Assembly (NCBI GenBank): GCA_018992565.1
Contig: JACVGW010000001.1
Location: 36,712-100,711, forward strand
From: Theionarchaea archaeon
Lineage (GTDB): Archaea > Methanobacteriota_B > Thermococci > Methanofastidiosales > SZ-28-30
Direction of reading: 5' to 3'
DNA: 64,000 bases
The translations under genes were made by a program, and so were the position numbers. Position 1 is the first letter of the stretch, and every line of letters begins with the position of its first letter. The notes under the pieces are model-generated. The model was given only the letters and a program-made list of their open reading frames with translations. It did no database searches and was not told the origin of the DNA. This document shows, piece by piece, positions 42,232-60,806 of this stretch.

Positions 42232-43359
42232 TTCTACTGCCTTCCGTATTTCTTCCAGATACTGATGGTAGGGATAGTATAGGGTGCAAGTATCAGGGTT
42301 ATAGCATTTGGTGTCTATAGTCTGCATCACCCAGAAAGATGCGGGAAACGATCTCAAAAAGTAGAATTTCTTGTCCTCTATCTCCACGTACCGATCCAGG
42401 TCCTGCAACAGCTTTATGAGAAAAGAGGGATGACAGACGCACTGCACTACGCCATAGTCCTGTCCTCCAGAAAAAGGAGTCCAGTAGGTCAATCGTTCCT
42501 GGATACGCACGTTTTTGCCAAAATTGAACAGGAGTCGATCGGTCTTTTCCCGATGACTGCTGCGCATTAACAGGATGAACCTGGAGCACTTCTCTCTCGG
42601 AATGGGATATACATTGTAATACTCCTCGATAATGTTGAGGTCAAGAAGCTTTCGGGCAGAAGACTTGAGCTCCGAATACGTGAGAAAGAGACCCTCCTTC
42701 TGTCGCTCATACTGACTGATCTTGCGCAGATTGCACTCCCCGATGCCCAGAAAGAGGTCCTCAATGAGGGAAAGATCACACGTAGTGAGAGATTCGCCAC
42801 AGAACTCACCAAGAGAAAGATCGGGCACCTCAGTCTCTTCCAACAACCTGTCCAGTGATGGAATGAGAGGGACTGGCTCATTCTTGTGGGTTACGAAGAG
42901 AGGATTTCTCAGATACCAGGAGGTCTTCTGCAAGTACAGGTCATAATGAACCAGAATATCACACTGCAAGAGATAGTCAAAAATCTCCTTGAGTTTTTCC
43001 TGATCAGAGCATACAAAGGAAGAGACCAGCATTCTAAAAGACTGTTCAAATACTGGATAGAGAGTGACAAAACAGCCGATCTTTTTTAGCAAATTAATGA
43101 CATATGGATAATCCCTGCGAAACATGAGCACTGCAATCATTCGACAGAGACGGTTCTTGGTAAATCGCCCCACATCCACATCGAAGTAAGGACCTGAGAG
43201 GTATCCTGCCTGTTTTAGCCTACGCTTTACCGCAGAAACATAGACTGAATTCTTGTAGTTTGAAAGAGTCGCCAGCCTTTCATTGGGAATATTCGGGTCT
43301 TTCGCCAAGCATTGTAGTATTAGTTTACGTCTCAACGGCAGATTGTCCTCAGTTTCCAT
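42208..43359 (-). CDS. Putative two-module winged-helix protein, distant paralogue of ORF 23477-24442
   Basis: The N-terminal block LRRKLILQCLAKDPNIPNERLATLSNYKNSVYVSAVKRRLKQAGYLSGP is HTH-like. A second HTH-like segment lies mid-protein. Confidence 0.4.
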   Translation of the reverse strand: METEDNLPLRRKLILQCLAKDPNIPNERLATLSNYKNSVYVSAVKRRLKQAGYLSGPYFDVDVGRFTKNRLCRMIAVLMFRRDYPYVINLLKKIGCFVTLYPVFEQSFRMLVSSFVCSDQEKLKEIFDYLLQCDILVHYDLYLQKTSWYLRNPLFVTHKNEPVPLIPSLDRLLEETEVPDLSLGEFCGESLTTCDLSLIEDLFLGIGECNLRKISQYERQKEGLFLTYSELKSSARKLLDLNIIEEYYNVYPIPREKCSRFILLMRSSHREKTDRLLFNFGKNVRIQERLTYWTPFSGGQDYGVVQCVCHPSFLIKLLQDLDRYVEIEDKKFYFLRSFPASFWVMQTIDTKCYNPDTCTLYYPYHQYLEEIRKAVESECLAPL

Positions 43360-46381: not shown

Positions 46382-46688
46382 AAGAACACCTCCGTGAAGT
46401 CTCTCACCCAGCCACAGTCTCTTTCCTCCACTTTTAAAGGTTTCGGTTTATCGGTCATTTCTTTCAGTGACATTAATTCCCAGAAGATGGATGTGTATGA
46501 CCTCAAGACGGGAGGATTCCTGGAGTTAGATTTATAAGTGGGAGGCAGTAGGAAATCCATGGTTCTCTGGTATGTGCTGCCACTGAAATCTATGGAAGAA
46601 CGCTTGAAAAAGACTTTTCCTGTCGCTTGCTGCTGGGTATTCCTCTTTTCTGTGCAGATTCAGCCCGATTCTTGTGGGAGGTTGCTTG

Positions 46689-48323
46689 ATGGTAGAACCT
46701 GATGGTTCTGTTTACCTTGAAGTTGCCCTGCCACAGATACGACGACTGCTGGGACTGCAGGACAGAAATCCCGGTTCATCTACGTATGGATGCTTTGACC
46801 GCAGCTTCTGGCACTATAGGGTTCTCGATTTTGCAAATGGAAGGCAACAGGAAGCTGCCCTGACCCTTGCTCTCGCATATCACATATCCCACCCGCTGAA
46901 CCCTTATTTTGGTAAGGAAAAGATGAAACAGTGGTGTCTGGCAGCTCTTCAATTTTTGACAGCCATTCAAAATGGAGACGGCTCCTTCAATGAATACTAC
47001 CCCCATGAACATGCCTTTGTGACTACTGCCTTTGCAGCCTTTGCAGGTTCTGAGGCGCTGCTCCTGCTGAATGAAAAGCCTCCCAGCACGGTGGAGATGT
47101 TGACCAAATGTGGGAAGTTCCTGTTAAAAAGAGATGAACTTGAAGTGGTAAACCAGAACCTTGGAGCTGCTTCTGCATTGTATAACATCCACCTACTAAC
47201 TAATGAGGAGAAGTTCAAAAAAGGTGCTTACTCCAAGATCAAAACCTCTCTCGAATCACAGTCACCAGAAGGATGGTTTCATGAGTACGGAGGCCCCGAT
47301 ATTGGGTATCTCAGTGTGGCTGTCAGCTATCTTGCTCACTTCTACTACAAAACAAGAGATGCACAAGCTCTTGCCGGCCTCAAGAAGGCAGTAACATTCT
47401 TGTCACATTTCATTCATCCTGATGGCACCGCGGGAGGGGAATATGGATCCCGCAACACTTTCTACCTCATCCCTGATGGCATTGAAATCTGCGCCCAGGT
47501 CGATCCATGTGCCGGCTATCTGGCCCGGGAAATACGCACTTCTCTAGCCCGAAAAGGGTTCTCCCCTGCTGACTTGGATAATCGTTATCTCTGCAACATG
47601 CTGTACAACTACGTGCAGGCCTACAGAATGTGCAACCCTGTACGAGAGCACACGTCACCAGAACCAGTTCTCTACGAAGAATCAGGTCTTTTGGTGGAAA
47701 AAAGAGACCAGTATCACATGGTGACAAACCTCCGGAAAGGTGGTGTATTCAAAGTGTTTTGTCACGGGGAACTGGTAGCCTCTGACTGTGGGATTCTGGG
47801 AAGGCTTTCCGACGGGACCCTTGTTACCAGTCAATGGCTTGGAACCTCGTTTACCCGGAAGAGATCTGGTGGCAGTACTCAGTACGTGGTGACTGGGCAG
47901 TTGATGAAGGTGCCTGAGCAACAGATGACGCCGCTAAAAACCATGATCTTGAGAGGTTCTCTTACGATTGGACAGAAGTATGTATCTGATCTGGCAAAAA
48001 ACCTGCTGAGAAAGCAACTCATCACCCAAAAAAACGCTGTACCTCTCTTCTTTGAACGCCGGCTAACCCTGAGTAGTGATATTCATGTCACTGACAAATT
48101 GAGAGGAACGGGTGAATTCGCCATGTTGCACCTGGTGACAAATGCCTCACTGATATATGTTCCTTCTTCGCGCTATTTCCGGATTACTGAGCTGTCTACT
48201 CCGCTATATCTCACTGATGATCTTTCGGATCTTTTTAATACCAAAGGGGAATTAGTTCTTGAGCGGAATATCACCTGTGATACTTGGCAGTCTCCACTGC
48301 GTAACCCACCAGGAGCACATTGA
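46689..48323 (+). CDS. Hypothetical protein, possibly alpha/alpha-toroid fold, glycan-locus associated
   Basis: It has repeated aromatic/Gly segments (IQNGDGSFNEYYPHEHAF, SPEGWFHEYGGPDIGY, IHPDGTAGGEYGSRNTFY) reminiscent of toroid repeats. The assignment is weak. Confidence 0.35.
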   Translation: MVEPDGSVYLEVALPQIRRLLGLQDRNPGSSTYGCFDRSFWHYRVLDFANGRQQEAALTLALAYHISHPLNPYFGKEKMKQWCLAALQFLTAIQNGDGSFNEYYPHEHAFVTTAFAAFAGSEALLLLNEKPPSTVEMLTKCGKFLLKRDELEVVNQNLGAASALYNIHLLTNEEKFKKGAYSKIKTSLESQSPEGWFHEYGGPDIGYLSVAVSYLAHFYYKTRDAQALAGLKKAVTFLSHFIHPDGTAGGEYGSRNTFYLIPDGIEICAQVDPCAGYLAREIRTSLARKGFSPADLDNRYLCNMLYNYVQAYRMCNPVREHTSPEPVLYEESGLLVEKRDQYHMVTNLRKGGVFKVFCHGELVASDCGILGRLSDGTLVTSQWLGTSFTRKRSGGSTQYVVTGQLMKVPEQQMTPLKTMILRGSLTIGQKYVSDLAKNLLRKQLITQKNAVPLFFERRLTLSSDIHVTDKLRGTGEFAMLHLVTNASLIYVPSSRYFRITELSTPLYLTDDLSDLFNTKGELVLERNITCDTWQSPLRNPPGAH

Positions 48324-49254
48324 CGCTGGAGAGTAGAAAAGCCACTGTCAGGACAACATTCCACCATAACATCCCTGCCCCAGAAAGCCACGTGTATAAC
48401 GCATATAATCCGAAAAGCAAGCCGACAGAAAGCATTCCGAAAGAAATCATGCCGAAGAGTCGAAATGGCCTTTCACCTAGTGTTAAATCCATCTTCAACG
48501 CAACCATATCCATAATTCCGCACGGGATTCTCATAGCACCATATTTTGATTTTCCATTCAACCTCGGTAGATAATCGACAGACACTTCCGCAATGGTGCA
48601 GCCTTTGTCCTTGAGAAGGGGGAGTATGTACCGATGTTCATCCTTCTTGAGGTACAAGTCTCTGACCGCCTCCCTCCTGAATGCCTTGAATCCCAGATTA
48701 AACTGGTGCACGGGCAATGAAAACAGCCTCTGGCAGATACCATTATATATGAGCGAAGGAACAATCTTAGTTATTGGCTCTTTCTTTTTTCCCCATCCAT
48801 TCACTACATCGTACCCTCTCTCCAGTTTCTCTACCATCTTCGGTATATCTGCTGCCCGGAACTGTCCATCTCCATCCATCAAGATAACGTATTTTCCTTC
48901 TGCATGTTGAAATCCAGTCATCATAGCTGCAGTTTTTCCTTTGTTAACATCATGGACAAGTACCTTTACATGAGGATGATACCGGCTTTGCATGGCCTGG
49001 GCGATTTCCAATGTTCGGTCAGTGCTTCCATCATCTACCAGAATGATATCATATTCTGTCCCAAGCGGAATGAGAGTCTCTTCAAGATCCTCTACCACAC
49101 TTTGGACATTCTTCTCTTCATTATACAATGGAACAATCACAGACACGTGCTTTCCACCATCTACCACACCATCTTCCAAGCAGGTCACCTGAATTGTCAC
49201 CTCCTCTACGGGAGAGGTTGAATGTTGATAGAAAGAATCAATCCGTTTGGTCAT
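48271..49254 (-). CDS. Family-2 glycosyltransferase, polyprenyl-phosphate type (Dpm1/GtrB/ArnC-like) with two C-terminal TM helices
   Basis: VSVIVPLYNEEKNV...ILVDDGSTDRT...DGDGQF is followed by two hydrophobic C-terminal helices. Confidence 0.8.
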   Translation of the reverse strand: MTKRIDSFYQHSTSPVEEVTIQVTCLEDGVVDGGKHVSVIVPLYNEEKNVQSVVEDLEETLIPLGTEYDIILVDDGSTDRTLEIAQAMQSRYHPHVKVLVHDVNKGKTAAMMTGFQHAEGKYVILMDGDGQFRAADIPKMVEKLERGYDVVNGWGKKKEPITKIVPSLIYNGICQRLFSLPVHQFNLGFKAFRREAVRDLYLKKDEHRYILPLLKDKGCTIAEVSVDYLPRLNGKSKYGAMRIPCGIMDMVALKMDLTLGERPFRLFGMISFGMLSVGLLFGLYALYTWLSGAGMLWWNVVLTVAFLLSSVNVLLVGYAVETAKYHR

Positions 49255-49583
49255 CTTTCACCACCTCTAAGTATCTATACCCTCCCTTGAAACTATATAA
49301 ACTTTCCGGTTGAAGAACACATTCAAAATTCACCGTTACATCTCTTTCTTTTATTACTTTATTGAATCTTCTTCTGCACTTAAAGAAGAGGTTTATATAA
49401 GGTATCACTGTATCTAAAGCCACATCTTCTGGCCTTCCCCTGTTTAGTACGGTGTAACTACTTTCTATTGCTTTGTAAGATTGATCGATATTTCACATAT
49501 TCATTCCAGGTAAGGTAATGCCAGTGCCCACGAATGAGAACCCGTGAAGATGAGATGAGAAGTGAGGGATACCGCTACCAGAA

Positions 49584-50603
49584 TCAGAAGGTCTTTCCCA
49601 GTATTCTATACAGAAAGATGCAGGGATAGACGGCTGCATGGAGGAGAGGGTTTCTCACTTTGGCAAATCCATATGCATTCTGTCTCTTGCATCCTATTCT
49701 CTCCTTGAATTCATAGGTAGATACGCCGAAATAGATCCTCTTTTGACCTCTCTGTAACGCTTCTCGTATGGTTTCGTAATACAGGAGGAAGTAAGCATGA
49801 CACTCCCTGTAGCCTGGATCAATGCCCGGGTACTTTATGTGCACAGTGCCTCCTGAGTTGAGCCACAGCGCACATGCTATAGGCATATCCTCCTTTAGAC
49901 AGATGGCTAATTCTGCTCTGTCTTTGAGATGATTCTCCAGACCTTCATAGAATGATTCAGTAAGGAGCCAGCGAGGATCTTTGTGGCTCTGACAGGTGTA
50001 TCTCTGGAGTCTATGCGCAGTGTCTTTCCATTTCAAGAAATCATTGGTAAAGATGGTTCTCAGGTTCCACTTTTTTGCTGCTCTGTTCATGGTGATTCGA
50101 GCACTCCTCCGTGTAGTTGGATCTAAAGACGCCAAGTAGTCGTCAAAATCCTTATAGGGGAGGTCAAGATAAGTATCATCAGCAAGGGGGAAGCCCACAA
50201 ATCCCTTCATCTGAGGGCCTAACCATGAGAATTCATCCCTGGTGAGTTCTAACACGAGCATGCCTCTGGTTCGAGTGGTTCTCTGGATCTCAAGCAGAGT
50301 GTCCAGGAGCTGGTGAGTATGTTCGGGGGAAGGAGAATGAAATGCAGAAGTGACACCAAGAGGTGATCTCACCTCTAGAAAAGCCACTCTCGTGGAAAAA
50401 ATGGGTTCTCTAATAGGAGAGCAGCATGCAGCGGCCAGAAGGGCTCCTCCTTCTTGTATTGTCACGTAGGTGAGCTCTCTCATTCCAGACTCTTCCACTG
50501 CCCTGTACCATCCGTAGGAACGTTCTACATCCTCTGTTCCCACCAGGTATTCCCATTCTCTTTGATCTATGTCCTGGATGCTTTTGAGAATTCTTACTTC
50601 CAT
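49584..50603 (-). CDS. FemAB-like / BioF2-like GNAT-fold acyltransferase, paralogue 1
   Basis: N-terminal EWEYLVG...GWYRAVEESGMRELTYV. C-terminal ...GIDPGYRECHAYFLLYYETIREALQRGQKRIYFGVSTYEFKERIGCK. It is 339 aa. Confidence 0.6.
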   Translation of the reverse strand: MEVRILKSIQDIDQREWEYLVGTEDVERSYGWYRAVEESGMRELTYVTIQEGGALLAAACCSPIREPIFSTRVAFLEVRSPLGVTSAFHSPSPEHTHQLLDTLLEIQRTTRTRGMLVLELTRDEFSWLGPQMKGFVGFPLADDTYLDLPYKDFDDYLASLDPTTRRSARITMNRAAKKWNLRTIFTNDFLKWKDTAHRLQRYTCQSHKDPRWLLTESFYEGLENHLKDRAELAICLKEDMPIACALWLNSGGTVHIKYPGIDPGYRECHAYFLLYYETIREALQRGQKRIYFGVSTYEFKERIGCKRQNAYGFAKVRNPLLHAAVYPCIFLYRILGKTF

Positions 50604-51004
50604 GGATACTACCTCGCTGGTGGGTCAGTAAATTGATTGACCAGCTCTCTTGCACCTCTCTCTTGTGAGACCGCCCTAATAAATACTGTGGTCTTAGCAA
50701 ATGTTGATAGAGAATTTTCTACGTTTTTATCTTTAAAAAAAATATTATATAACGATTTAGGATAATTAAAGATGATTAGGAAGACACACATGTATCATCA
50801 TAACCAGGTCACAATAGGTGCTAATGTCTTTCTTGGGTCAACGCAAGAGCTGTGACCATGAATAGGTGTAGCCCCTCTTCTAGAATGGATTCGCATATTC
50901 CCTAGTGAATGGAGAGAAGAAGGCCTGTCTGGTTCAGAGAAGAGAAACTGTATCGATGATGGAAGAATACCAGTTAATTGTGAGATGATGAACCTACACG
51001 TCAA

Positions 51005-51029
51005 CTAAAAAGGAAAAGCAGAAAAAATG
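51005..51029 (-). terminator. Oligo-T terminator candidate after the Cys-rich gene
   Basis: The minus strand reads CATTTTTTCTGCTTTTCCTTTTTAG, starting 13 nt after the stop. Confidence 0.4.
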
Positions 51030-51041
51030 AATTACAGCTGA

Positions 51042-51728
51042 TCACGGGTCTGGGCAACCATCGCACGTCTTCCCGCAGGTATCATCACATGTATATTCGC
51101 ACGTGTCTTCACATGTGTCTTCGCAGGTCCAGGGGCATGTAGGACCATCGCAGGTTGAAGGGCATGTCGCCTGGCACGTTGAACCACATGTATAACATGT
51201 CTGCTGACATCCTGTAGCATTACACGTCCATCCCTGACCCTGACAGGTCTCACACGTTGACGGACAGGTTACCACGCATGTTCCCATACATGTGAAAGCT
51301 GCAACGCACGTGTATCCGTCACACGAAAGGCTACACGTAAACTGAGTGCATGTCCACCAGTTCAGGCATGTGGCCAAACATGTGCTTCCTCCATGCGTAT
51401 ATCCCTCACAGGTCTGCGAGCACGTGTAGTACCCATGGCAGGTATAGTATCCGTAACAGGTTTCCAGTCCGGTGGTGCTCAAAATTTCGTCGTTGCAGCA
51501 ATCTGTGACCCCGCAATTCAGGCTACATCCCTGTTCAGCAGTATACATAAAGGCGTTTTGTTCAGTAGGTAGGAAATTCATTTTGTATGAAGCTTCTTCC
51601 ATTCTATAGGTATATAATGGCGTACTCAGGAATGGAGAATCGGCTGTCACAGCTGCAGCTGCAAGTACTACAGCAACGGTGCTGAACACCGCAATATATA
51701 GCATCTGTTTCTTTATTATGCTGGTCAC
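51042..51728 (-). CDS. Secreted Cys/Thr-rich repeat protein (about 34 Cys, mostly T-C dipeptides at 4-residue spacing)
   Basis: The Sec-type signal is KKQMLYIAVFSTVAVVLAAAAVTA. A Cys-free ~40-aa segment follows. The ~155-aa core is ...TCPSTCETC...TCYTCGSTCQATCPSTCDGPTCPWTCEDTCEDTCEYTCDDTCGKTCDGC. The start is ambiguous (GTG 51728, ATA 51719 or ATG 51704). Confidence 0.6.
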   Translation of the reverse strand: MTSIIKKQMLYIAVFSTVAVVLAAAAVTADSPFLSTPLYTYRMEEASYKMNFLPTEQNAFMYTAEQGCSLNCGVTDCCNDEILSTTGLETCYGYYTCHGYYTCSQTCEGYTHGGSTCLATCLNWWTCTQFTCSLSCDGYTCVAAFTCMGTCVVTCPSTCETCQGQGWTCNATGCQQTCYTCGSTCQATCPSTCDGPTCPWTCEDTCEDTCEYTCDDTCGKTCDGCPDP

Positions 51729-51747
51729 CTCCTTCTGGGCTCTGCTC

Positions 51748-51755
51748 TATTTATA
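51748..51755 (-). promoter_or_regulatory. TATA-box-like element upstream of the Cys-rich gene
   Basis: The minus strand has TATAAATA ending 20 nt upstream of GTG 51728. A second element, TTTTATAAAT, lies ~15 nt further upstream. Confidence 0.35.
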
Positions 51756-52000
51756 CAGAAGCATTTATAAAATTTTCTGTTCTTTATTCACAAAACATAT
51801 TCTGGTTTACTATTTAAAAGGACAATAATATAAGAGACCTGAATGCGATTTACCTTCAAAGGAACGTAAGTCTTGAAATGGAATCATTGACGTGACTCCC
51901 TCATCTTCATGTGGGGTGGTGGGGAGAACTTCCCACAGTACTGAAACGATGTAACAAATCTGAGCTTGAAATCCGCCAAGAGTACTGGGGGTTCCCATGC

Positions 52001-53020
52001 TCAAAACGTTCTTCCCAAAAAGCCCAGACCCCACGCATATGACTTTAGTGCCAGTTGAAGAAGCGGGTTGTCCAATTTTACAAATCCAAAGACCTGTTCT
52101 CTCCTGCATCCGATCTTCTTCTTAAATTCGTAGGTTGTTGGGCCAAAATAGATCCTTTTCTGATTTCTCTGCAGTGCCTTTTTGATTCCCTCATAATACA
52201 TTACAAAATATGCCTGATATTCTTTATACCCGGGGTCAACTCCCGCAAGTTTGTGGACAGCCAGAATATCCGTGTTCAGAACAAGCCCGGATGCGATAGG
52301 AATATCATCCTTTGAACAAATGATCAGCTCAGCCTTGTCTTTGAGATGCCTCTCCAGGGCTTCATAAAATGCTTCTGTGAGGTGGCTTCTTGTAATACCA
52401 TGTTCCTCACATAAATAACCTCTGAGCCTGTGTGCCGTTTCTTTCCATTCTGAAAATTCGCTGGTAAAAGTGGTCGTCAGATTCCATCTTTTTTCCGCCC
52501 TGCTCAGTGTTTTTCGCACACTCCTCCGCGCACTTGCATCAAGAGAGCTCAGATAGTCATCGAAATCCGCGTAGTCCAGGTCAATGTAAGTATCATCCAG
52601 TATTTGTACAGGGTTGTATCCATTCATCTGTTCTCTCAGAAGTGCAACCTCTGTGTCTTTTAATTCAAGAACGAGGATTCCCTTCGCGTTAACTGCTTGC
52701 CTGATCTTTTCCAATTCCTTCAATAGCTGCGGGATATACTTCAGAGATGTAGAGAATAGTCCAGAGGCAGTACCGAAAGGAGAACGCACTTCTAAGAAGC
52801 GTATTTCAATGTTCAGCAATTCCTCTTCATAGGGGTAGCACGTTGCAGCAGCCACAAGACGCCCCTCCTCTTTAAGGAACACATAGTGCATGTCTCTCAT
52901 CCCGGAATCTTCAACCGCCCTGTACCACCCGGTTAATTTCCCTGCGTGCTCAGTTCCCACGAGACGTTCCCACTCTTCCTGCTCTACATCTGTGATAGTA
53001 TCTGATTGCACGATATCCAT
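52001..53020 (-). CDS. FemAB-like / BioF2-like GNAT-fold acyltransferase, paralogue 2
   Basis: It has the same conserved blocks (EWERLVG...GWYRAVEDSGMRDMHYVF...GVDPGYKEYQAYFVMYYEGIKKALQRNQKRIYFGPTTYEFKKKIGC). The start was moved to ATG 53020, after AGGTGATTCA. This gives 339 aa, as in paralogue 1. Confidence 0.6.
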   Translation of the reverse strand: MDIVQSDTITDVEQEEWERLVGTEHAGKLTGWYRAVEDSGMRDMHYVFLKEEGRLVAAATCYPYEEELLNIEIRFLEVRSPFGTASGLFSTSLKYIPQLLKELEKIRQAVNAKGILVLELKDTEVALLREQMNGYNPVQILDDTYIDLDYADFDDYLSSLDASARRSVRKTLSRAEKRWNLTTTFTSEFSEWKETAHRLRGYLCEEHGITRSHLTEAFYEALERHLKDKAELIICSKDDIPIASGLVLNTDILAVHKLAGVDPGYKEYQAYFVMYYEGIKKALQRNQKRIYFGPTTYEFKKKIGCRREQVFGFVKLDNPLLQLALKSYAWGLGFLGRTF

Positions 53021-53327
53021 TGAATCACCTGTATGGTCCTCATCCTCCGCGGACACTTTTCATCTGAGTAAAAACAGAACCATTTAAGAGTTTTGTGATG
53101 CGGTAGCTTCTCATTTCACATTTGTGTCTGAATATCCCTTTTCTGCCTTTTACTACGTTGTCAATATCAGATGGATCGTGTTCTCCGATTCGAGACCACA
53201 TACGTACATGATCGAAGGAAAACTACTTTTGAGATCATGGTAGCTTTCCTGTATTGAAGCTGTCCCTCTCAATTATAGTGGCTCCTGGCGCTGAAATTGC
53301 GAATTGGAGTGATGAGGTGACAGCCTA

Positions 53328-54326
53328 TCAGAAATCTTTATTGATGAGGTTGTACCCAGCAGTAATAAGTCTGAAAAATGAATGGAACACTGGGTTATCG
53401 AACTTTACTAACCCGTAAAGCTCTTCTCTCTTGCAGCCGATTTTCTCTTTAAACGCATAGGTTGTAGAGCCGAAGTACATCCTTTTCTGACCTCTCTCAA
53501 TAGCCCTTCTAATGCCTTCATAGTAGAAAAGGAAATATGCTTGATATCTTCTGTACTCTGGATCCAGTCCTACGAGTTTATGCTCAGCAACAGTGGAAGA
53601 GAAGAAAGGAAGACCAAAGGCAATGAGAACGTCATTCTTGAAGAAGAGTATGAGTTCAGCATGATCTTTCATATTAGTCTGAACTGCTTCATAGAACCGG
53701 GGGGGAAAGCGAGTTCTGGAATCGCCATATTTCTGACACAGGTACCCCTGCAGCCTGTAGCATTCATCTTTCCATCTTGAAAAGTCAGTAGTGATAACTG
53801 TTTCTAGCTTGAACTCCTTTCTGGCCCTCTTAAGTGTCATCCGTGCACTCCTCCAGGCTTGTTCATCGAGAGAGTCAAGGTATTCATCAAAGCTCGCGAA
53901 GTGTAAGTCAAGATACGTTTCGTCTTTAAGAGGAAGGCTGATCCCTCCTGTCAAGTACTGTCTGATAGCATCAAACTCTGCTCTTTTTAGAAACAATGAT
54001 AGAATTCCTTTTGTCTTTTCTTTCTCCTTGATCTCCACCAGACCCTCCATGAGTTTCTGTGTGGAATCAGCATTGGGGGAAAAGAAAGATATCACATCCA
54101 GAAAAGGCATTCCGGAAAGAAATCTCCTCTCAATGTATGTGTAGCAGCAAGCAGCACCAATCAGAGTATCTTTCTCCTTCAGGAAAACATATTGCATATC
54201 CCTCATGCCAGAGTCTTCTATAGTTCTGTACCACCCATGCGAACGTTCTATGTATATTCTTCCTGCCACCCTCTCCCACTCTGTCTCTTCTATTTCCTTG
54301 ATGGTTTTTGAAATCACGAGTTCCAT
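53328..54326 (-). CDS. FemAB-like / BioF2-like GNAT-fold acyltransferase, paralogue 3
   Basis: It has the same conserved blocks (EWERVAG...GWYRTIEDSGMRDMQYVF...GLDPEYRRYQAYFLFYYEGIRRAIERGQKRMYFGSTTYAFKEKIGC). Confidence 0.6.
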   Translation of the reverse strand: MELVISKTIKEIEETEWERVAGRIYIERSHGWYRTIEDSGMRDMQYVFLKEKDTLIGAACCYTYIERRFLSGMPFLDVISFFSPNADSTQKLMEGLVEIKEKEKTKGILSLFLKRAEFDAIRQYLTGGISLPLKDETYLDLHFASFDEYLDSLDEQAWRSARMTLKRARKEFKLETVITTDFSRWKDECYRLQGYLCQKYGDSRTRFPPRFYEAVQTNMKDHAELILFFKNDVLIAFGLPFFSSTVAEHKLVGLDPEYRRYQAYFLFYYEGIRRAIERGQKRMYFGSTTYAFKEKIGCKREELYGLVKFDNPVFHSFFRLITAGYNLINKDF

Positions 54327-54833
54327 GGAATCATCTCACATCGCACTTTTCAGACTCTTCGAGATCATCCTTTCAGGATCAATCGTAGGAGATACCTGAA
54401 ATCTATCGTGTAGGTACTGCTAATAAAGGTTTTGTAAGAATAGAAATCGCCTTTGATCTCACTATGCTCTTCTCAAGAATAGGCATCCTGCCTGCCATAT
54501 TCTTCTTTTTTCGTTGCACTGTCCCAATTTCAGAATCCATGGCAATGGAAATCTCAGCATGTTTTTCCCTGAAAGCCGCATTCTTCCTATGGGGCCTGAC
54601 AGCCACGGCAAGAATGAAATCCGGGCTTCTTGGTTTCCACGAAACAATCCTTCTCCATTCAATGCAAACAGTGCTCCAGATGAGTACCTACACAAATAAT
54701 ACAGTCTTCTTCAGGTGTTCCTATCAGAGCATGAGATAATGGACGTCTTCACCTGCCAGCTGCTGAAAGCACCATGCTCTGCAGTGGGACTGATGGGAAC
54801 TGCCACGTTCTCCATTATTCAGTATTGGTATGC

Positions 54834-55730
54834 TCACTCAATTCTTTTTCCAGCTTTGGTCAACATCGCAATGTAGGTCTTCAAGGCAACATTCAAGAAG
54901 GGGTTCCTGAAGGCAGCCAGCCCAAAGACTCCTTCTCTCTTACATCCAATTTTCTCTTTGAATTCGTAGGTTGATGGGCCAAAATAGATCCTTTTCTGTC
55001 TTTTTTCAAGAGCTCTGCGAATTCCTTCATAATAAACCAGGAAATAAGCCTGGTAATCCCTGTATTTTGGATCGGTGCCCATGAATTTGTATTGGCAGAT
55101 CTCAGCTGAATTCAAAGACATAGCAAAAACCAAGGGTACGTCCTCCCTAGAGAAAAGCACCAGTTCTGCCTCATTCTTCAAGTAAGTTTCAAGAGCAGAG
55201 AAAAATTCCTCTGATAAGTACCATCTGTAATTTCTAAAACGATCACAGAGATATTTCTGGAGTTTACGAACAGTGTCTTTCCATTTCAGGAAGTCATGTG
55301 AAAAAACACACTGTATCCCAAGTTTTTCCGCCCTGTTCAATGTAGCTCTGACACTTCGCCGGGACTTTCCATTCAAGGACCCCAGGTAATCCTCAAAATC
55401 AGAGAAATTCAAGTCCATATACGTATTGTCATCTACCTGGAACTCTGTGAACCCTGTCATCTGGTTCTTCAACGAGGTAAGCTCATGGTTCTTTAGGTCC
55501 ATAATCATGAGCCCCGATGCTTTCACTTTCCTGCGGATTTTCTCCAGTTCTCGTAGAAGAGAACAAGCATGCTCAGAGGTCTGAGAAAAAAAGGCCAGGT
55601 TCGTCCCTAACGGCGATCGTACTTCCAGAAAAGGCATCTCCACATACATCTTCTCCCTATATGGGAAACAGCATGCAACAGCCACGAGGTGCCGCTCTTC
55701 TTTCAGGAATACGTAGCGCAGGTCTCTCAT
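54834..55730 (-). CDS. FemAB-like acyltransferase, paralogue 4, with lost canonical start codon (truncated product or pseudogene)
   Basis: The first ATG is at 55730. The frame stays open to 55883 and encodes the conserved N-terminal block (EIVQSHTVTDVEREEWENLVGTKDIERSYNWYRTIEASR) with no ATG/GTG/TTG. ACC sits where paralogue 2 has ATG, after a retained GGAGGTGA. Confidence 0.5.
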   Translation of the reverse strand: MRDLRYVFLKEERHLVAVACCFPYREKMYVEMPFLEVRSPLGTNLAFFSQTSEHACSLLRELEKIRRKVKASGLMIMDLKNHELTSLKNQMTGFTEFQVDDNTYMDLNFSDFEDYLGSLNGKSRRSVRATLNRAEKLGIQCVFSHDFLKWKDTVRKLQKYLCDRFRNYRWYLSEEFFSALETYLKNEAELVLFSREDVPLVFAMSLNSAEICQYKFMGTDPKYRDYQAYFLVYYEGIRRALEKRQKRIYFGPSTYEFKEKIGCKREGVFGLAAFRNPFLNVALKTYIAMLTKAGKRIE

Positions 55731-55965
55731 CCTGGATGCTTCTATTGTTCTGTACCAATTGTAAGAACGCTCAATGTCCTTCGTTCCTACCAGGTTCTCC
55801 CATTCCTCTCGTTCTACATCTGTGACGGTGTGTGATTGTACGATTTCGGTAGGATCACCTCCAGGTATGTACGGGCACTGAGACTATGTAATCCTTTGCC
55901 AATATAAACAATGAGGGCCTCTCTTCTATTATCTACTATCATACTACTGGAACCACCATCGGCTT

Positions 55966-56742
55966 TCAGCAGCCCGCGCCCTGAGTGCACCCTTCCTGGC
56001 AGGCATATTCACCCATGGTTAGAGGTTCTGCTTTCACAGTAGCCCACCTCAAGAATTTCTCGACTGCGCCTTCCATCTTCTCGCCAGTGTTCCTCGTATA
56101 CATAATTCCTCCCCTGGTGAGAGGCACAAATTCCCAGGGATGGAAGTAGATGGCCAGGTAATTGCTCTTCAATGCCAAGGTGACAATCTTGGCATATGAC
56201 ACGCCCAACTGCCTGAACCACACCCATGACAGAGGGAGACGTGCAAGAGGGGAAACACTCACTGGAATTTCGAGGACTCCCTCCTGAGAGAAGGGAATTC
56301 TGGGCTCACCAAGATGGTTGTAGCGTCCCGGTACAAGGGTTGGATGAAGTGAGCTCGAATACAGAAAGCCTGCACTCTTTAAAACGGCATATGAAGGAGG
56401 CCTCATCCGGGGTGCACGAAATCCAGCCACCTGATTGGTTATCCCTTTCTCCAGCTTTTCTTTTCCAGTGCGAAGCCTTTCGAGGGCATCTTCTGCAGAC
56501 ATGGACTGATAGTCGTCTCCATGAGACAGCCCATGAAACGCAATTTCGTGCTCGTCCGAAAGCTCTGCAACAAATTCGGAGTATCTGCTGTAAAATGATC
56601 CAGTGACAAAAAAGGTAGCCCGTACCTCGGTCCTTCTCAATAGGTCACGCACAACCTGCCCTCCCCTGTATCCTATCTCAAATCCATCTTCTCCTGCTTT
56701 ATCGTATTCTTCTAGATCAAAACTCAAGAGTAATGTATTCAT
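55966..56742 (-). CDS. Polysaccharide deacetylase (NodB-homology, EPS-locus type)
   Basis: Blocks LLLSFDLEEYD...ATFFVTG...HEIAFHGLSH are present. The start was set at the ATG that overlaps the upstream stop (ATGA). Confidence 0.7.
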   Translation of the reverse strand: MNTLLLSFDLEEYDKAGEDGFEIGYRGGQVVRDLLRRTEVRATFFVTGSFYSRYSEFVAELSDEHEIAFHGLSHGDDYQSMSAEDALERLRTGKEKLEKGITNQVAGFRAPRMRPPSYAVLKSAGFLYSSSLHPTLVPGRYNHLGEPRIPFSQEGVLEIPVSVSPLARLPLSWVWFRQLGVSYAKIVTLALKSNYLAIYFHPWEFVPLTRGGIMYTRNTGEKMEGAVEKFLRWATVKAEPLTMGEYACQEGCTQGAGC

Positions 56743-57581
56743 TGTTTCACCCCGATTATTGAGAAATTCCACGAAATCAAAGCAGGTTCAGTCTTGATTC
56801 CTAGTGAATATGGTTCAAAGACACTGTATAATTCTCTATCTGTGAAGACATGCAAATACTTCTCAGATATGAAATACAGGTCACGTATTTCTGCCAAAGT
56901 GGGGACTTTCTTTCTTCGGAGAGTAAATCTCGTGAGATGCAAAATGAATTTGACAATTCTTGCGGATTTCCCCATTGTATGCGAAAAGGGGTTATAGGAA
57001 AGCAGGGCCAGCCCGCTCAACACGAAGAATGCGCCTGCCAACAGAGGGGAGAAAATAAACCCTGCAACACCCAGAATCCCGCACCCTAGAGAACTTGCAG
57101 ACCACAGCACAAGATGCCCCCTGTTCCGCAGCTCTTTAGCGACGAAAGAACCTCCTTTCTTCAGCACTCTGTCTATTTCCTTGATAGTCCCTTCAAGGAC
57201 CTCTTCCGGTATCACAGACAAGAAGTAATCAGATAACACAAAATCAAAGCTTCCATCTTCAAAGGGGAGGTAGTCTCCCCTGCAGCAGATCACCTCGTTC
57301 CCTCTGGAAATGGCCATTTCCAGCATGCCAGGGGAGAGATCGATGCCACATACCCACGCCTGAGGCTTGAATTGCTTGATCAGCTCCATGAAGGACCCAT
57401 TCGTCACTCCCATCACCAAGATGCGGGATGTCTCATCGGGTATGAGACTGTTGTAGTAGGAGTCCCAGGCCCACTGTGGGTTTACTGTGGCAATGTCTTT
57501 CCAGTACCTGGATGCGACCTCCCAGTACACTGCCTGGGGCTGTTCAGCTAAGGGGGCTTTAGATGCCAAGTTTTTTCCCAA
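56739..57581 (-). CDS. Methyltransferase-like protein with C-terminal TM helices
   Basis: A class I MTase-like core (ILVMGVTNGS...CGIDLSPGML...FDFVLSDYFL...LKKGGSF) is followed by two hydrophobic helices. Motif I is atypical. Confidence 0.5.
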   Translation of the reverse strand: MGKNLASKAPLAEQPQAVYWEVASRYWKDIATVNPQWAWDSYYNSLIPDETSRILVMGVTNGSFMELIKQFKPQAWVCGIDLSPGMLEMAISRGNEVICCRGDYLPFEDGSFDFVLSDYFLSVIPEEVLEGTIKEIDRVLKKGGSFVAKELRNRGHLVLWSASSLGCGILGVAGFIFSPLLAGAFFVLSGLALLSYNPFSHTMGKSARIVKFILHLTRFTLRRKKVPTLAEIRDLYFISEKYLHVFTDRELYSVFEPYSLGIKTEPALISWNFSIIGVKQ

Positions 57582-58254
57582 TCCGCTCTCCCCACCTATC
57601 GAGAGGGGCCAGATTTAGAAGGACAACCAGCACCATGAAGGCAGCGAACCAGTACACCAGTTCATGCATCAAGGGATCCCTTCCCAAGAAATAGGATACA
57701 TGATAGACCCAAGAAGCAACCTCCGAATAGGGGAATCCCCATCTCAGGTGGAATATAGTCTGGAAGATGAAGATGTTGAGGCAGGAGAAGTAGACGAGCA
57801 GCCCTGAAAACACGATCTTCAATGTTTTTGCTGTAGACCCACCACCCATTCTGAAGGCCAGTGATACACCAAATATGATGGATGGAAACAACATGACATA
57901 GAACGCGTTCCACAATTCGTTGATGAAGTAGTGTCGATCCTGGTTGAACTCTGGAATGAATGTCTCTTCAAAGGCTTCATCCGGATAGGTTCCGAACCAT
58001 CCCCACGACAGAGCATTCTCATAAGGCACCAGGAATGCAAAGAGCAGCAAGACAATCAGAATGTACTTATATTTCCAGGTGTTGGGAAAAAACGCAACAG
58101 CAAGTCCCATGAATATCAAAGCAAAAAGCTTGGGCAGAAAGACACCCAGGGATATAACCTCTCTGGTATGTGGCGTAAATAACAGCATGTACCCTCCTAT
58201 GGATACTGCCAGGATTCCGAATATGAGCCATAACCATTTTCTGATAGGCAACAT
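57559..58254 (-). CDS. Polytopic membrane protein, function unknown
   Basis: 231 aa with about six hydrophobic helices. It is the first gene of the minus-strand run and overlaps the next gene by 23 nt. Confidence 0.5.
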   Translation of the reverse strand: MLPIRKWLWLIFGILAVSIGGYMLLFTPHTREVISLGVFLPKLFALIFMGLAVAFFPNTWKYKYILIVLLLFAFLVPYENALSWGWFGTYPDEAFEETFIPEFNQDRHYFINELWNAFYVMLFPSIIFGVSLAFRMGGGSTAKTLKIVFSGLLVYFSCLNIFIFQTIFHLRWGFPYSEVASWVYHVSYFLGRDPLMHELVYWFAAFMVLVVLLNLAPLDRWGERIGKKLGI

Positions 58255-58674
58255 AGATTCACCTCAGCCTTTCTCTCAAAGTGAGTTTATAAACTTTTCC
58301 ATGTTGATAACTGAGATATGCTGCTTTTTGAGATTTTCCGAAAGGGAATTTCCTTCAATGTGGTTTTTTGAACAGACCAGTAGATTTCTGCGTACATTAC
58401 GGGTGGGTCACTGGTATCCAGACACTCCAGGAAATGCTGGCAATAGCCCAGGGTCTGTTTGTCAATCTAGTCAGCTTTGGCGCCACCTAGACTTTTTCTG
58501 CAAATTACAGAGATGATCTCTGGATGGATGGACATACCTGGCTGACTCCACACTCCAAGCTTCAGGATAACCTTTAAGACTGCATAAACAAAGTAATTGT
58601 ATCCAGATACTACCTTGAATTGAACGTCATGCAGAGGTGATTCAATAAGAGTACGCCGAGCTACCCTTGAAGAT

Positions 58675-59403
58675 GTGGTAAAATTTCACCTGTTATTTAA
58701 AAAGGCATACTGTAATCACTCGCTATATCACGTCAGAACTCCAGAATTCTACCAGCAGCTCTTGATCAAGAGACCTAATGTCGGACTGAAGAACATTCTA
58801 GTAGCAGAGAGAGAAAATGGGCTGACAGGATTTGCGGCATTCGGAGTCAAAGACCTTGGCTCTGCAACGATTATTTCTATCTACGAAGTGTCAACCACGG
58901 ATGAAGAGTCATTTCATGCCCTGATGTCTGGAATTCAGCACATTGGAACAGAGAAAAGATGTGCCTACCTGGAAACAATGGCCCCTCCACAGGGCAACCT
59001 CGCCTCCCAGCTGACTGAAGAGGGGTATTCAAGGATCAAGGATATGATTACCATGGGTTACCCCATTACGGTCAGGAGAATTCTCAACCTCTTTGTTGAA
59101 AGAGCTCTCTCAAAGGGAATGTTCAGAAAGAATGTAAAGATAGCTTTTGATGTTAATGGGGAGCATATCGTTCTCACACTGCCTGAAGGCACGCTTGAGA
59201 ATGGAACTGAGGGGGACCTGTTGATTCAGACTTCTGCGTGCGTATTGCTGGAACTCCTCTTCAGGAGAGCTGGAATCTTAATATCACTCATCAAGGGAAA
59301 AGTGGTCGTAAGGCCGTTGCGATGTATAGTGTCTGCTCGTGAAGTGATTGAGTACCTGGCCGAAGAAGTAAGAGCAATTACTCCCTACACGGAATTGACT
59401 TGA
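58675..59403 (+). CDS. GNAT-type acetyltransferase with possible SCP2-like C-terminal domain (Eis-like)
   Basis: The open frame upstream of GTG 58675 encodes IRVRRATLEDV, a typical GNAT N-terminus. GAGGTGA + 4 nt precedes an ATA codon at 58645, so the true start may be a mutated or non-canonical codon. Confidence 0.45.
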   Translation: MVKFHLLFKKAYCNHSLYHVRTPEFYQQLLIKRPNVGLKNILVAERENGLTGFAAFGVKDLGSATIISIYEVSTTDEESFHALMSGIQHIGTEKRCAYLETMAPPQGNLASQLTEEGYSRIKDMITMGYPITVRRILNLFVERALSKGMFRKNVKIAFDVNGEHIVLTLPEGTLENGTEGDLLIQTSACVLLELLFRRAGILISLIKGKVVVRPLRCIVSAREVIEYLAEEVRAITPYTELT

Positions 59404-59528
59404 CTCATTTTTCCTCAACGTTGCACGTTTCGCCCGGCCCGACAATCTGTTTTATTTTCAGCCAAAGAACCCGAAAACCTTAAATACCCATGGATCGAGA
59501 AAAACAAGAAGTATAAGGAGGAAAGTAA

Positions 59529-60806
59529 ATGCATAGAATTCAAAAATGGATCCTCGTAGTGACAATTTCTTCAATTATGGTAATCTCAGGTATTTCCAGC
59601 GCTTCTGTTGTGAGAGAATCCCAGATAACTACCAATACTAACACTCAATGGCGTCCTTCCGTCTGGGGGAAGTACATTGTGTGGCAGGATCAGAGAAATG
59701 GGAATGCTGATATCTATGGCTATGATCTTACAACGGGGGCTGAATTCTCTATATGCACTAATGTATTCAACCAGGAACACCCTTCAATATATGGAAGTAC
59801 TGTTGTTTGGTATGACTGGAGAAATGGAAATGCTGATGTCTACGGATACGACCTCTCCACAGGAACTGAGTTTCCCATCTGCACCAATGTAAATAATCAA
59901 CGCCTGCCCATAATCTATGGTACATATGTCGTGTGGAACGACTGGAGGAATGGCAACTGGGATATCTACGGATACGACCTCTCCACAGGAACTGAGTTTC
60001 CCATCTGCACCAATACTGCCCACCAGTATTTTCCCAATGTGGGTAGCGGAATAGCAGTTTGGTGGGATGAGAGAAACGGCATTGGCAACTGGGATATCTA
60101 CGGATATGATATATCTACAGGGACAGAATTCCCGATTTGCCTGAATCCAGGTAACCAGGGATATCCTGTGACCCACAACAATGTGGTGGCATGGATTGAT
60201 GACCGAAATGGCAACTGGGATATCTACGGATATGATGTATCTACAGGGACAGAATTTCCTGTATGCACCAATACCTCTGACCAGTTCCGTCCGTGGGTCT
60301 TCAACGATGTCATTGTGTGGTTTGATATGCGGAATGGAAACCAGGACATTTATGGATATCAAATGTCAAGCGGTACAGAATTCCAGATTACAACCAACAC
60401 AGGCGACCAGAGACATCCCAAGATCCAGTGCAACTATGTAGTATGGCATGACAGGAGAGATGGAAACTACAACATATACCTTGCTGAGCTAGACATCAAT
60501 GAATGCGGAGGACAACCTACATTCCTTTATCGTCCCGTGGACTACAATAGTCCGATGAGGTCTCTTGCTTCAACGCGAATTTCGGAAGTGCAGGGATTAC
60601 TGGAAGAACTGCAGAATACGTGTGAAAAACTGAAAGAGAATGATGATCCTCTGTACGAGAGATGCTGCGTGGACAGACTGGACGAAGCACAAAAGTACCT
60701 GGAGAAGGCTGAGACGTTATTCATGAGCGGTAACTACATTGCGGCAAACTACTGGGCACTCAAGGCATTGGAAATCCTGCAGGAAGCCAAAGACTGCTGC
60801 TCATAA
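59529..60806 (+). CDS. Secreted protein with about 6.5 tandem 42-aa beta-propeller-type repeats and helical C-terminal domain
   Basis: It has a signal peptide. Repeats follow W.D.RNGN.DIYGYDLSTGTEFPICTN...Q..P......VVW. SD AGGAGG lies 7 nt upstream of the ATG. Confidence 0.65.
   Translation: MHRIQKWILVVTISSIMVISGISSASVVRESQITTNTNTQWRPSVWGKYIVWQDQRNGNADIYGYDLTTGAEFSICTNVFNQEHPSIYGSTVVWYDWRNGNADVYGYDLSTGTEFPICTNVNNQRLPIIYGTYVVWNDWRNGNWDIYGYDLSTGTEFPICTNTAHQYFPNVGSGIAVWWDERNGIGNWDIYGYDISTGTEFPICLNPGNQGYPVTHNNVVAWIDDRNGNWDIYGYDVSTGTEFPVCTNTSDQFRPWVFNDVIVWFDMRNGNQDIYGYQMSSGTEFQITTNTGDQRHPKIQCNYVVWHDRRDGNYNIYLAELDINECGGQPTFLYRPVDYNSPMRSLASTRISEVQGLLEELQNTCEKLKENDDPLYERCCVDRLDEAQKYLEKAETLFMSGNYIAANYWALKALEILQEAKDCCS
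59839..60014 (+). repeat. Intragenic tandem repeat with a perfect 50-nt copy at 126-nt offset
   Basis: TCTACGGATACGACCTCTCCACAGGAACTGAGTTTCCCATCTGCACCAAT occurs at 59839-59888 and again at 59965-60014. A second near-identical pair lies at 60084-60130 and 60210-60256. Confidence 0.85.

Follow-up and report, generated by a model that had tools for sequence, protein, structure and literature searches.

A family of predicted exported proteins with Thr-Cys units at a four-residue period in Theionarchaea and Methanofastidiosia

Long arrays with a Cys at every fourth residue have been described in the CXXX-repeat targets of radical SAM enzymes (TIGR04114 tSAM_targ_Cxxx, TIGR04117 and PF27846 tSAM_targ_Cxxx_rpt, with the maturase TIGR04115). 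Together with the 'Cys-every-fifth' CefB system, TIGR04114/04115 establish periodic-Cys proteins as targets of such enzymes. Here we describe a protein encoded in a 64-kb window, by which we mean the whole stretch of Theionarchaea DNA that was analysed, and the family to which it belongs. The models TIGR04114 and PF27846 are its nearest described analogues, and the tandem four-residue Cys spacing is found both in the window protein and across the family. The family differs from CXXX-repeat targets in having a signal peptide, its own conserved N-terminal domain and a near-obligatory Thr before Cys. Neither the window protein nor the relatives scanned reach the cut-offs of TIGR04114 and PF27846, and no more than a few members give even sub-threshold matches; the best-scoring relative (P0078) gives 17.4 bits against TIGR04114, where the cut-off is 20, and the match of another (P0067) to PF27846 is weak. 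One JGI family record bears the title 'modification target Cys-rich repeat protein'.

Other known systems each share part of the design. Sactipeptides and ranthipeptides (PapB, SCIFF) have a leader-like conserved part followed by a variable Cys-rich part; a further likeness lies in the possible short-range pairing of Cys with an acceptor in each repeat and in the RRE-rSAM-SPASM genes near some relatives. Their precursors are, however, shorter than those of this family by a factor of 2–4, and the family has a Sec-type signal and no orthologous maturase linked to it. The nematode proteins of Pfam C_tripleX (PF02363) show a C-x3-C-x3-C pattern, which one relative matches below threshold (12.9 bits, cut-off 22.9), but that family is eukaryotic and lacks both the conserved N-terminal domain and the Thr rule. 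Metallothioneins and other thiolate metal binders resemble our family: Cys makes up about 20% of the sequence, basic residues are few, no fold is predicted in the absence of ligand, and the number of Cys need not be even. Metallothioneins are cytosolic, whereas this family has a signal peptide that predicts export, common aromatics, rare CxC and CC, a regular four-residue Thr spacing and a conserved non-Cys N-terminal domain. Finally, the Tenebrio-type antifreeze beta-solenoids of insects (TCTxSxxCxxAx) are also secreted proteins dominated by a short-period Thr/Cys repeat, but their period is 12 and not 4.

The gene occupies positions 51042–51728 on the minus strand of the window, reading from GTG at 51728 to the stop at 51042–51044 and encoding 228 aa; an alternative ATG at 51704 would give 220 aa. 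Exact matches among proteins from Theionarchaea metagenome-assembled genomes (MAGs), on which the assignment of the window to this group rests, are 228 and 220 aa long, and both starts thus appear in public annotations. Codon use is mixed (TGC 18 and TGT 16; ACA 14, ACC 13, ACG 10 and ACT 3), tandem repetition at the DNA level is limited to 44–55 bp close to the 3' end, and dN/dS is 0.08 against an 81%-identical orthologue in locus L006. These three observations rule out an artefact of a simple DNA repeat, which the sequence-only reading had already thought unlikely from the varied codons. With the ORF and its four-residue T-C unit reproduced, the evidence from ORF reading, exact matches and substitution rates indicates that this is a genuine gene of the Theionarchaea genome.

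Signals read by eye from the surrounding DNA suggest that the gene is transcribed separately. Two TATA-like boxes lie upstream of the start at 51746–51771 (TTTATAAAT at 51763–51771 and TGTATAAATAG at 51746–51756), the second about 20–25 nt before GTG 51728, a distance compatible with an mRNA that has a short leader or none. Beyond the stop by 15–35 nt, between 51007 and 51027, oligo-T runs of T6 (51022–51027), T4 (51014–51017) and T5 (51007–51011) are like an archaeal terminator. Because these promoter-like and terminator-like signals are accompanied by flanking intergenic gaps of 272 and 438 bp, the gene is probably its own transcription unit, in agreement with what had been proposed from the boxes and T-runs before.

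The encoded protein has three parts. Its signal-peptide-like N-terminus (aa 1–29; 51642–51728) consists of MTSIIKKQ, with its K/R residues, then some 19–20 hydrophobic residues and V-T-A, with a predicted cleavage before DS. By rule of thumb (a basic n-region, an h-region of about 15–20 hydrophobic residues and small residues at -3/-1) this stretch qualifies as a Sec signal peptide, and AlphaFold2 predicts a helix over residues 2–27. The V/T/A preference is shared family-wide, at -10/-9/-8 from the TPLY motif, by 119, 96 and 150 of 205 members, which upholds the earlier view of a Sec-type exported protein. A Cys-free conserved domain follows (aa 30–67; 51528–51641), as delimited by alignment and profile; it contains the family signature, STPLYTYRMEEASYKMNFLPTEQNAFMYTAEQG, and ten residues in it (P37, L38, Y39, R42, M43, E44, S47, F52, Y62 and G67) are invariant in alignment A2. 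Mean column identity is 55% in the N-terminal part versus 23–28% over the whole protein.

The remainder is an acidic repeat region of about 30 Thr-Cys-x-x units (aa 68–228; 51045–51527) that starts with the first Cys, at residue 68, and holds 34 C, 33 T, 17 D+E and a single K+R in 161 aa. Thr stands immediately before 27 of the 34 Cys, and 17 of the 33 Cys-Cys gaps are exactly four residues, the others being 3, 5 or 6 residues apart from four outliers. The number of Cys and the prevailing C-x3-C spacing given by the sequence-only reading therefore stand, while its count of about 28 Thr-preceded Cys has to be lowered by one. A more conserved block inside the region reads GWTCNATGCQQTC...TCP.TC, and TCT occurs once in the protein.

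This architecture, with its four-residue repeat, is kept across 95 homologues. A profile of the N-terminal domain retrieves 247 clusters at 50% identity, always with the domain at the N-terminus, and the members retrieved are 59–281 aa long with about 20% Cys in their C-terminal part. All share one plan: a Sec-type signal ending in V-T-A, a Cys-free domain of about 40–60 aa (TPLYTxRMEQASSKMNFLPT..F.Y..G) and an acidic T-C-x-x array whose length varies. Judged from these sequences, the family comprises about 240 clusters at 50% identity, is confined to Theionarchaea and Methanofastidiosia and is previously undescribed. It is thus a large family of uncultured sediment archaea, with up to seven paralogues per locus; tandem arrays of 6–7 paralogues are found in L003 and L004, from a population with 10 or more distinct sequences. 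Family genes are solitary, with median gaps of 259 bp upstream and 199 bp downstream. The metagenome samples behind the contigs carry the label SMTZ, for the sulfate-methane transition zone of estuary sediment.

Neither the window protein nor any scanned relative passed a cut-off in the curated libraries Pfam, NCBIfam, PHROGs and PADLOC or in a search of PDB sequences; for the window protein, NCBIfam gave no match at E<=0.01 and Pfam none at E<=10. Literature searches on CXXX repeats, TIGR04114, PF27846 and Theionarchaea with cysteine-rich proteins found no relevant report. The suggestion that no described family has an xxTC period fits the lack of Pfam, NCBIfam, PHROG, PADLOC and PDB matches. 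A pattern scan of reference genomes confirmed one locus only (L010, in a Woesearchaeota-labelled MAG); by our estimate most of the 89 pattern matches are due to chance, arising from a degenerate second pattern.

In the 95 homologues together, Cys-Cys gaps number 1941, of which 1003 are four residues long and only 43 are of the CC or CxC kind; 1635 Cys are preceded by Thr. The family unit can be written T-C-[P/E/W/G]-[D/S/N/Y], with P at 29% of x1 positions and D/S/N at 42% of x2 positions. Between relatives (478 pairs), Cys is conserved at 94.8% and the Thr before it at 93.6%, with Ser as the usual Thr substitute; by this comparison the two residues are equally constrained. The Cys-rich region contains 20.5% C and 19.8% T, a T:C ratio close to 1:1, with 10.8% D+E, 2.1% K+R, 8.6% Y+W+F and a median net charge of -7. 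A Thr-Cys dipeptide at a four-residue period is an unusual defining unit, and the familiar explanations of Cys-rich proteins fail to account for it.

Our best guess, which we hold tentatively, is that these proteins are extracellular thiolate arrays that bind metals or sulfur. Sec would export the protein and the signal peptide would be cleaved, leaving the conserved domain as the mature N-terminus. The T-C-P/E-D/N/S units would then form a run of beta-turns and not a globular or solenoid fold, a reading suggested by P at x1 and D/S/N at x2, given textbook turn propensities. In the anoxic, sulfidic sediment around the cell, the exported protein would offer many free thiolates at once, flanked by Thr hydroxyls and Asp/Glu, as a multivalent array to which soft metals, metal-sulfide species or zero-valent sulfur would bind at the cell surface; its Cys would not be locked into a defined pattern of intramolecular disulfides. 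If the Cys are indeed free thiolates, the family would be a candidate for metal or sulfur handling at the surface of these archaea in sulfidic sediment.

We count in favour of a thiolate array the ligand-friendly composition, the absence of a dedicated enzyme among the immediate neighbours in 59 locus groups and the envelope-related neighbours, which in several loci include an S-layer protein, GldG/DUF4350-like membrane proteins and STT3 and, in the window, the glycosyltransferase/FemAB cluster. Against it stand two departures from metallothionein sequences, which have few or no aromatics and CxC, CxxC or CC motifs: in this family aromatics are common, and the classical spacings are rare. Thiolate binding also leaves unexplained the equally strong conservation of Thr and Cys and the fact that the N-terminal domain, of 40–60 aa, is the most conserved part. 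Moreover, a conserved 'leader' with a hypervariable Cys-rich 'core' in tandem arrays is what a modified-peptide precursor classically looks like.

That resemblance leads to a second explanation, the main rival, which we consider unlikely: the proteins may be RiPP-like, with the N-terminal domain as leader and T-C units modified by an enzyme whose gene lies in another part of the genome. This enzyme would most likely be one of the many PqqD-radical SAM-SPASM maturases, which could form Cys-to-Thr thioethers of the sactipeptide and ranthipeptide kind, and the outcome would be a ladder of small rings made before or during export. Consistent with this, conservation is concentrated in the N-terminal part with its ten invariant residues and drops in the Cys-rich part, and the genes occur in the tandem arrays noted above. 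The constraint on Thr, with Ser as its main replacement and about one Thr per Cys, would fit a chemical role for a hydroxy amino acid, and the established periodic-Cys radical-SAM targets provide a precedent. Were the units modified, RiPP-like chemistry would extend to exported archaeal proteins of 150–280 aa.

Genes for possible maturases occur near some relatives. There are 18 radical SAM/SPASM genes in the 728 kb around family genes, some with an N-terminal PqqD/RRE and several only 0–760 bp away (L018, L078 and L059), and in L009 two family genes flank one for a stand-alone PqqD protein. As cognate maturases, however, the radical SAM/SPASM enzymes, found near 10 locus groups, failed both a distance test and an orthology test. 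Their density is flat with distance, at about 0.2–0.25 per 10 kb in most bins with a peak at 4.5–6 kb; they are mutually 20–33% identical and differ in kind (AhbD/NirJ-like, CefB-like and PapB/SCIFF-like), whereas a near-invariant leader should pair with one conserved maturase. The only listed match to TIGR04115, from one of nine neighbouring enzymes scanned, scores 103 bits against a cut-off of 350 and lies 4.8 kb from a relative; no cognate TIGR04115-type maturase adjoins the gene, whereas CXXX-repeat targets are encoded beside theirs and a partner protein (TIGR04116). No radical SAM/SPASM homologue occurs within the 64-kb window; two radical-SAM-like ORFs in it (11959–12747 and 13887–14822) are about 37 kb from the Thr-Cys gene. 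An N-terminal Sec-type signal and a 'core' of 100–190 aa would be unusual for RiPPs, and the window protein has no match to the CXXX-repeat model. We also considered the PqqD neighbour as a partner and set it aside, as it is present in L009 only. Among the 25 commonest Pfam families listed for 123 neighbours within 1.3 kb there are no YcaO or lanthipeptide-synthetase domains, that is, none of the dehydratase/cyclase or cyclodehydratase partners expected beside lanthipeptide or azole precursors.

A bolder form of this idea, which we rate as rather improbable, is that every T-C unit is converted post-translationally, into a Cys-to-Thr thioether or a methyloxazoline-thiazoline pair, by a trans-encoded enzyme recognising TPLYTxRMEQ..FLPT, yielding a Sec-exported 'ladder' with 15–45 modified units. 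Such conversion, if true, would define a new and very large class of archaeal surface polymers that are made on the ribosome and then modified.

It is a good deal harder to credit that these are disulfide-rich secreted proteins, either solenoids or antimicrobials of the defensin or conotoxin kind, with a conserved signal and pro-region and a hypervariable, disulfide-braced mature part. The signal, the conserved pro-like region, the hypervariable Cys-rich part and the multigene arrays would all suit this explanation, as would the strong conservation of Cys between relatives and the even Cys number of the window protein. Family-wide, however, even Cys counts are no commoner than odd ones (71 non-redundant complete genes split into 34 even and 37 odd, and 205 members into 93 even and 112 odd). 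AlphaFold2 is usually good at solenoids and small disulfide folds, yet two runs gave no repeat fold, with pLDDT of 49 from a 37-sequence alignment and 47 from a 96-sequence alignment, and pLDDT stayed below 50 over the repeat region; this low confidence may stem from a repetitive sequence that is hard to align. Because parity lacks an even bias and the models are foldless, a disulfide solenoid is disfavoured, and free or otherwise used thiols are favoured. The disulfide-laddered solenoid put forward by the sequence-only reading also does not agree with the repeat itself: an antifreeze-type solenoid should show coils of 12–15 residues, paired Cys and a confident solenoid model, whereas a period of four is too short for a coil and TCT appears a single time. 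The SMTZ origin of the contigs also counts against a disulfide fold: the hosts are strict anaerobes of sulfidic sediment, where extracellular disulfides are disfavoured. Disulfide bonding leaves Thr unexplained as well.

The window gene lies between FemAB-like paralogues 1 and 2, an arrangement maintained at the 81%-identical orthologous locus (L006/L007), and the earlier proposal that it encodes a substrate of the surrounding enzymes had started from this position. FemAB neighbours are confined to the window lineage (the window, L006 and L007), which is one of 59 locus groups, and the four FemAB matches among 123 immediate neighbours all come from the window and L006. The position therefore looks accidental to this lineage, with no functional link suggested. 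The flanking cluster, with weak matches to XrtA-system FemAB and deacetylase and with CapK-like ligases, resembles an exopolysaccharide locus, which needs no protein substrate. That the Thr or Cys are acylated, aminoacylated or glycosylated by the four FemAB-like transferases, glycosyltransferase, deacetylase or methyltransferase of this cluster is thus very improbable, given also the gene's own promoter-like and terminator-like signals and FemAB-like proteins that have no evident signal peptide whereas their supposed target has one.

The wider neighbourhood is diverse, the 123 immediate neighbours in 59 locus groups matching 152 Pfam families, of which the commonest have 4 members each. TldD/PmbA pairs near two relatives were judged to reflect shared synteny and not a link. 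A 383-aa wHTH-like protein of the window (42208–43359) is 25–31% identical to a subgroup adjacent to family genes; we do not count it as a partner because it falls in an orthologue group of its own that is highly conserved. The only neighbour that depends on distance is a putative Lrp-like regulator of about 365 aa, absent from the immediate surroundings of the window gene. Of its 10 copies, eight are no more than 1.5 kb from a family gene and none is found at 1.5–7.5 kb, suggesting that some paralogues are probably under the control of an adjacent Lrp-like regulator.

Our results show that the minus-strand ORF at 51042-51728, which encodes 228 aa from GTG 51728, is a genuine gene and that its product belongs to a discrete, undescribed archaeal family of Thr-Cys repeat proteins with a three-part architecture. 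The sequence-only reading had picked out this ORF as T-C-rich with 4-residue spacing, which we confirm: the protein contains 34 Cys, starting from residue 68, and 17 of its 33 Cys-Cys gaps are of 4 residues. The earlier tally of about 34 Cys was exact, but 27 of them, rather than about 28, directly follow Thr; from residue 68 to the end there are 34 C, 33 T, 17 D+E and one K. We agree that a translation artefact of simple DNA is unlikely and rule it out, because Cys and Thr codons are both mixed and only ~50 bp, near the 3′ end of the ORF, score as tandem repeat. Compared with its orthologue in L006 (a locus orthologous to the window), to which it is 81% identical, the gene has a dN/dS of 0.08. 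Two TATA-like boxes upstream (51763-51771 and 51746-51756), three T-runs 3′ of the stop codon (51007-51027) and flanking intergenic gaps of 272 and 438 bp suggest a separate transcription unit, as had been proposed from the same promoter- and terminator-like signals. The start codon is ambiguous (51702-51734): GTG 51728 is overlapped by GGAGG, a start at the in-frame ATG 51704 would shorten the product to 220 aa, and both forms occur in public annotations of identical MAG proteins; these exact matches assign the window to a Theionarchaea MAG. Starting at ATG 51704 would cost the protein the basic n-region present in homologues (MNKKQ..); ATA ATA AAG in the window is ATG AAT AAG in the orthologue.

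The homologue search proposed from that reading returned 95 proteins, none carrying a name, and those with a taxon label come from Theionarchaea or Methanofastidiosia MAGs. In all of them the N-terminus is basic and then hydrophobic, the Cys-free segment that follows is highly conserved (TPLYTxRMEQASSKMNFLPTxxNxFTYTTEKGYTLN), and the Cys/Thr-rich portion varies widely in length. Searching 1.84 billion representative proteins with a profile of the first 72 positions gave 247 clusters with E<=1e-3, of which 237 reach E<=1e-10; the 150 matches listed are 59-281 aa long, with the domain beginning within a few residues of the N-terminus in most, and the remainder of the protein is ~20% Cys in the matches examined, apart from a few probable frameshifts. 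Gaps of 4 residues make up 1003 of the 1941 Cys-Cys gaps in the 95 homologues, in which 1635 Cys follow Thr; the repeat unit is T-C-[P/E/W/G]-[D/S/N/Y], with a 5-residue variant T-C-[D/E]-[G/D]-[P/S]. Across 478 pairs of relatives (55-92% identity), Cys was conserved at 94.8% and Thr before Cys at 93.6%, values to be read knowing that repeat alignments tend to pair TC with TC, compared with 69.6% for other Thr in the region and 21-60% for other residues; Ser was the commonest substitute for Thr before Cys. The conserved element is thus shown to be the T-C unit, rather than Cys by itself.

The view that no described family has this xxTC period also held, in that Pfam, NCBIfam, PHROGs and PADLOC returned no match to the window protein, and no PDB sequence matched a profile of the family (alignment A1). 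Periodic-Cys repeat proteins are already known, namely the CXXX-repeat and Cys-every-fifth radical-SAM targets and nematode C_tripleX. A few relatives match CXXX-repeat target models, all below cut-off (TIGR04114, at best 17.4 bits against 20; TIGR04117; and, weakly, PF27846, tSAM_targ_Cxxx_rpt); one relative gave a sub-threshold match to C_tripleX. Membership tests placed the Thr-Cys family in none of these, and it differs from them in having a signal peptide, a conserved N-domain of its own and a near-obligatory Thr. The sole member confirmed in the reference-genome collection (L010:6270-6512) comes from a MAG labelled Woesearchaeota, on a contig of 7 kb; the host range may be wider, or the contig may have been misbinned. 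Tandem, same-strand paralogues occur in a Theionarchaea contig (L003:9992-17806 and L004:494-8621), interrupted by a 749-786 aa multi-pass membrane protein without a family; each locus has 6-7 paralogues, and this population has at least 10 distinct ones (123-266 aa, 14-47 Cys).

Judging by its residues, the window protein is probably exported by Sec, with putative cleavage after V-T-A, and would function outside the cell; Pro at x1 and Asp/Asn/Ser at x2 point to T-C units forming a run of beta-turns. The mechanism that we prefer, tentatively and with less than even confidence, is a candidate surface thiolate array: the exported protein would present multivalent thiolates, assisted by Thr hydroxyls and acidic residues, through which these anaerobes could bind soft metals, metal sulfides or sulfur at their surface.

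The main rival, possible but rather doubtful, is a RiPP-like protein in which a trans-acting enzyme would cross-link the T-C units. This reading would best account for the invariant N-domain and the conserved Thr, but no orthologous enzyme is linked to the genes, and the signal peptide has to be fitted in. We merged 97 collected loci at ≥90% nucleotide identity into 59 groups (45 with >5 kb), a survey that shows no conserved enzyme in cis. Family genes are mostly solitary (median gap 259 bp upstream, 199 bp downstream); the 123 proteins within 1.3 kb matched 152 Pfam families, and the 25 commonest have at most 4 members each and include no YcaO or lanthipeptide-synthetase domain. Cell-envelope genes (S-layer protein, GldG/DUF4350-like membrane proteins, STT3) adjoin family genes in several loci, and two clusters of neighbours are each found in 10 groups: a 365-395 aa protein and PqqD-radical SAM-SPASM proteins. 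Radical SAM/SPASM genes are frequent near family genes (18 in 728 kb). We rejected the PqqD-radical SAM-SPASM neighbours as one cognate maturase, since their density shows no fall-off with distance, their mutual identity is 20-33% and their kinds are mixed (AhbD/NirJ-like; CefB 'Cys-every-fifth'-like, 286 bits; PapB/SCIFF-like, 281-284 bits); the 64-kb window contains none.

Diverse radical SAM/SPASM genes resembling peptide maturases are unusually abundant in these sediment-archaeal loci (L042:3266-4606, L044:3795-5171, L059:3357-9224, L018:1-4326, L068:3084-7639), and small ORFs that could be their own precursors adjoin several. Only in L009 does a stand-alone 96-aa PqqD-family (RRE-like) protein lie between two Thr-Cys repeat genes (L009:930-2594), 4.5 kb from a radical SAM gene (L009:7098-8315) whose CxxxCxxC we read by eye as HemN-like.

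A structural or antimicrobial protein rich in disulfides is unlikely. The sequence-only reading had proposed a disulfide-laddered solenoid, which modelling did not bear out: AlphaFold2 gave mean pLDDT of 49 and 47 (37- and 96-sequence alignments), and in both models the repeat region stayed below 50 and a solenoid was absent. The N-terminal helix was the sole confident part, the conserved domain, including a short helix over LYTYRMEEASYK, reached ~55-60, and the models thus show no confident predicted fold. Disulfide-bonded secreted protein families strongly prefer even Cys numbers. The mature parts of 205 members include 93 even and 112 odd, and a cleaner sample, 71 non-redundant genes that have their stop codon within the contig, includes 34 and 37, showing that this family has no even-Cys constraint. 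This parity, together with the habitat of the contigs, which come from samples labelled SMTZ (taken to mean sulfate-methane transition zone), argues against a fixed intramolecular disulfide ladder.

That the protein is a substrate of the surrounding FemAB cluster, the functional tie first suggested, is very improbable: among the 59 groups FemAB neighbours are limited to the window and orthologous L006/L007, so the context is shown not to be conserved and the suggested link is lineage-specific. The window cluster (48271-63638) comprises a GT2 glycosyltransferase (48271-49254), four FemAB_like/Acetyltransf_6 paralogues (49584-50603, 52001-53056, 53328-54326, 54834-55730), a polysaccharide deacetylase (55966-56772), a methyltransferase (56739-57581), a 231-aa membrane protein without a family (57559-58254) and two ~430-aa proteins (61087-63638; CapK_C in the L006 counterpart). 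It looks like an archaeal surface-polysaccharide locus, because the FemAB and deacetylase proteins weakly match bacterial XrtA/PEP-CTERM exopolysaccharide-locus models (TIGR03019, TIGR03006). Kept beside the glycosyltransferase is a plus-strand 549-aa protein without a Pfam/NCBIfam family (46674-48323), whose L006 orthologue has only a faint Ulvan_lyase_N match.

The recurrent 365-395 aa neighbours (for example L011:8687-9781, L087:7945-9129, L036:13958-15067) show a weak wHTH signal at the N-terminus and nothing in Pfam above cut-off; judged by eye, they resemble tandem Lrp/AsnC-type regulators. Eight of the 10 copies, in 8 locus groups, are no more than 1.5 kb from a Thr-Cys family gene, mostly at 123-433 bp and in divergent orientation, and none is at 1.5-7.5 kb; adjacent copies are mostly 48-68% identical to one another, with an outlier in L054 at 25-29%. 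We rejected the window copy (42208-43359, minus strand) as a partner: 7.7 kb from the Thr-Cys gene and only 25-31% identical to adjacent copies, it is a distant paralogue from another orthologue group, itself highly conserved, so no Lrp-like partner adjoins the window gene. Elsewhere in the window, a plus-strand 425-aa protein with a signal-peptide-like start (59529-60806) contains ~7 tandem ~45-aa units (..NGNxDIYGYDLSTGTEFPICTN..), and an 81-aa relative of it lies directly 5′ of the Thr-Cys repeat gene in L013-L015.
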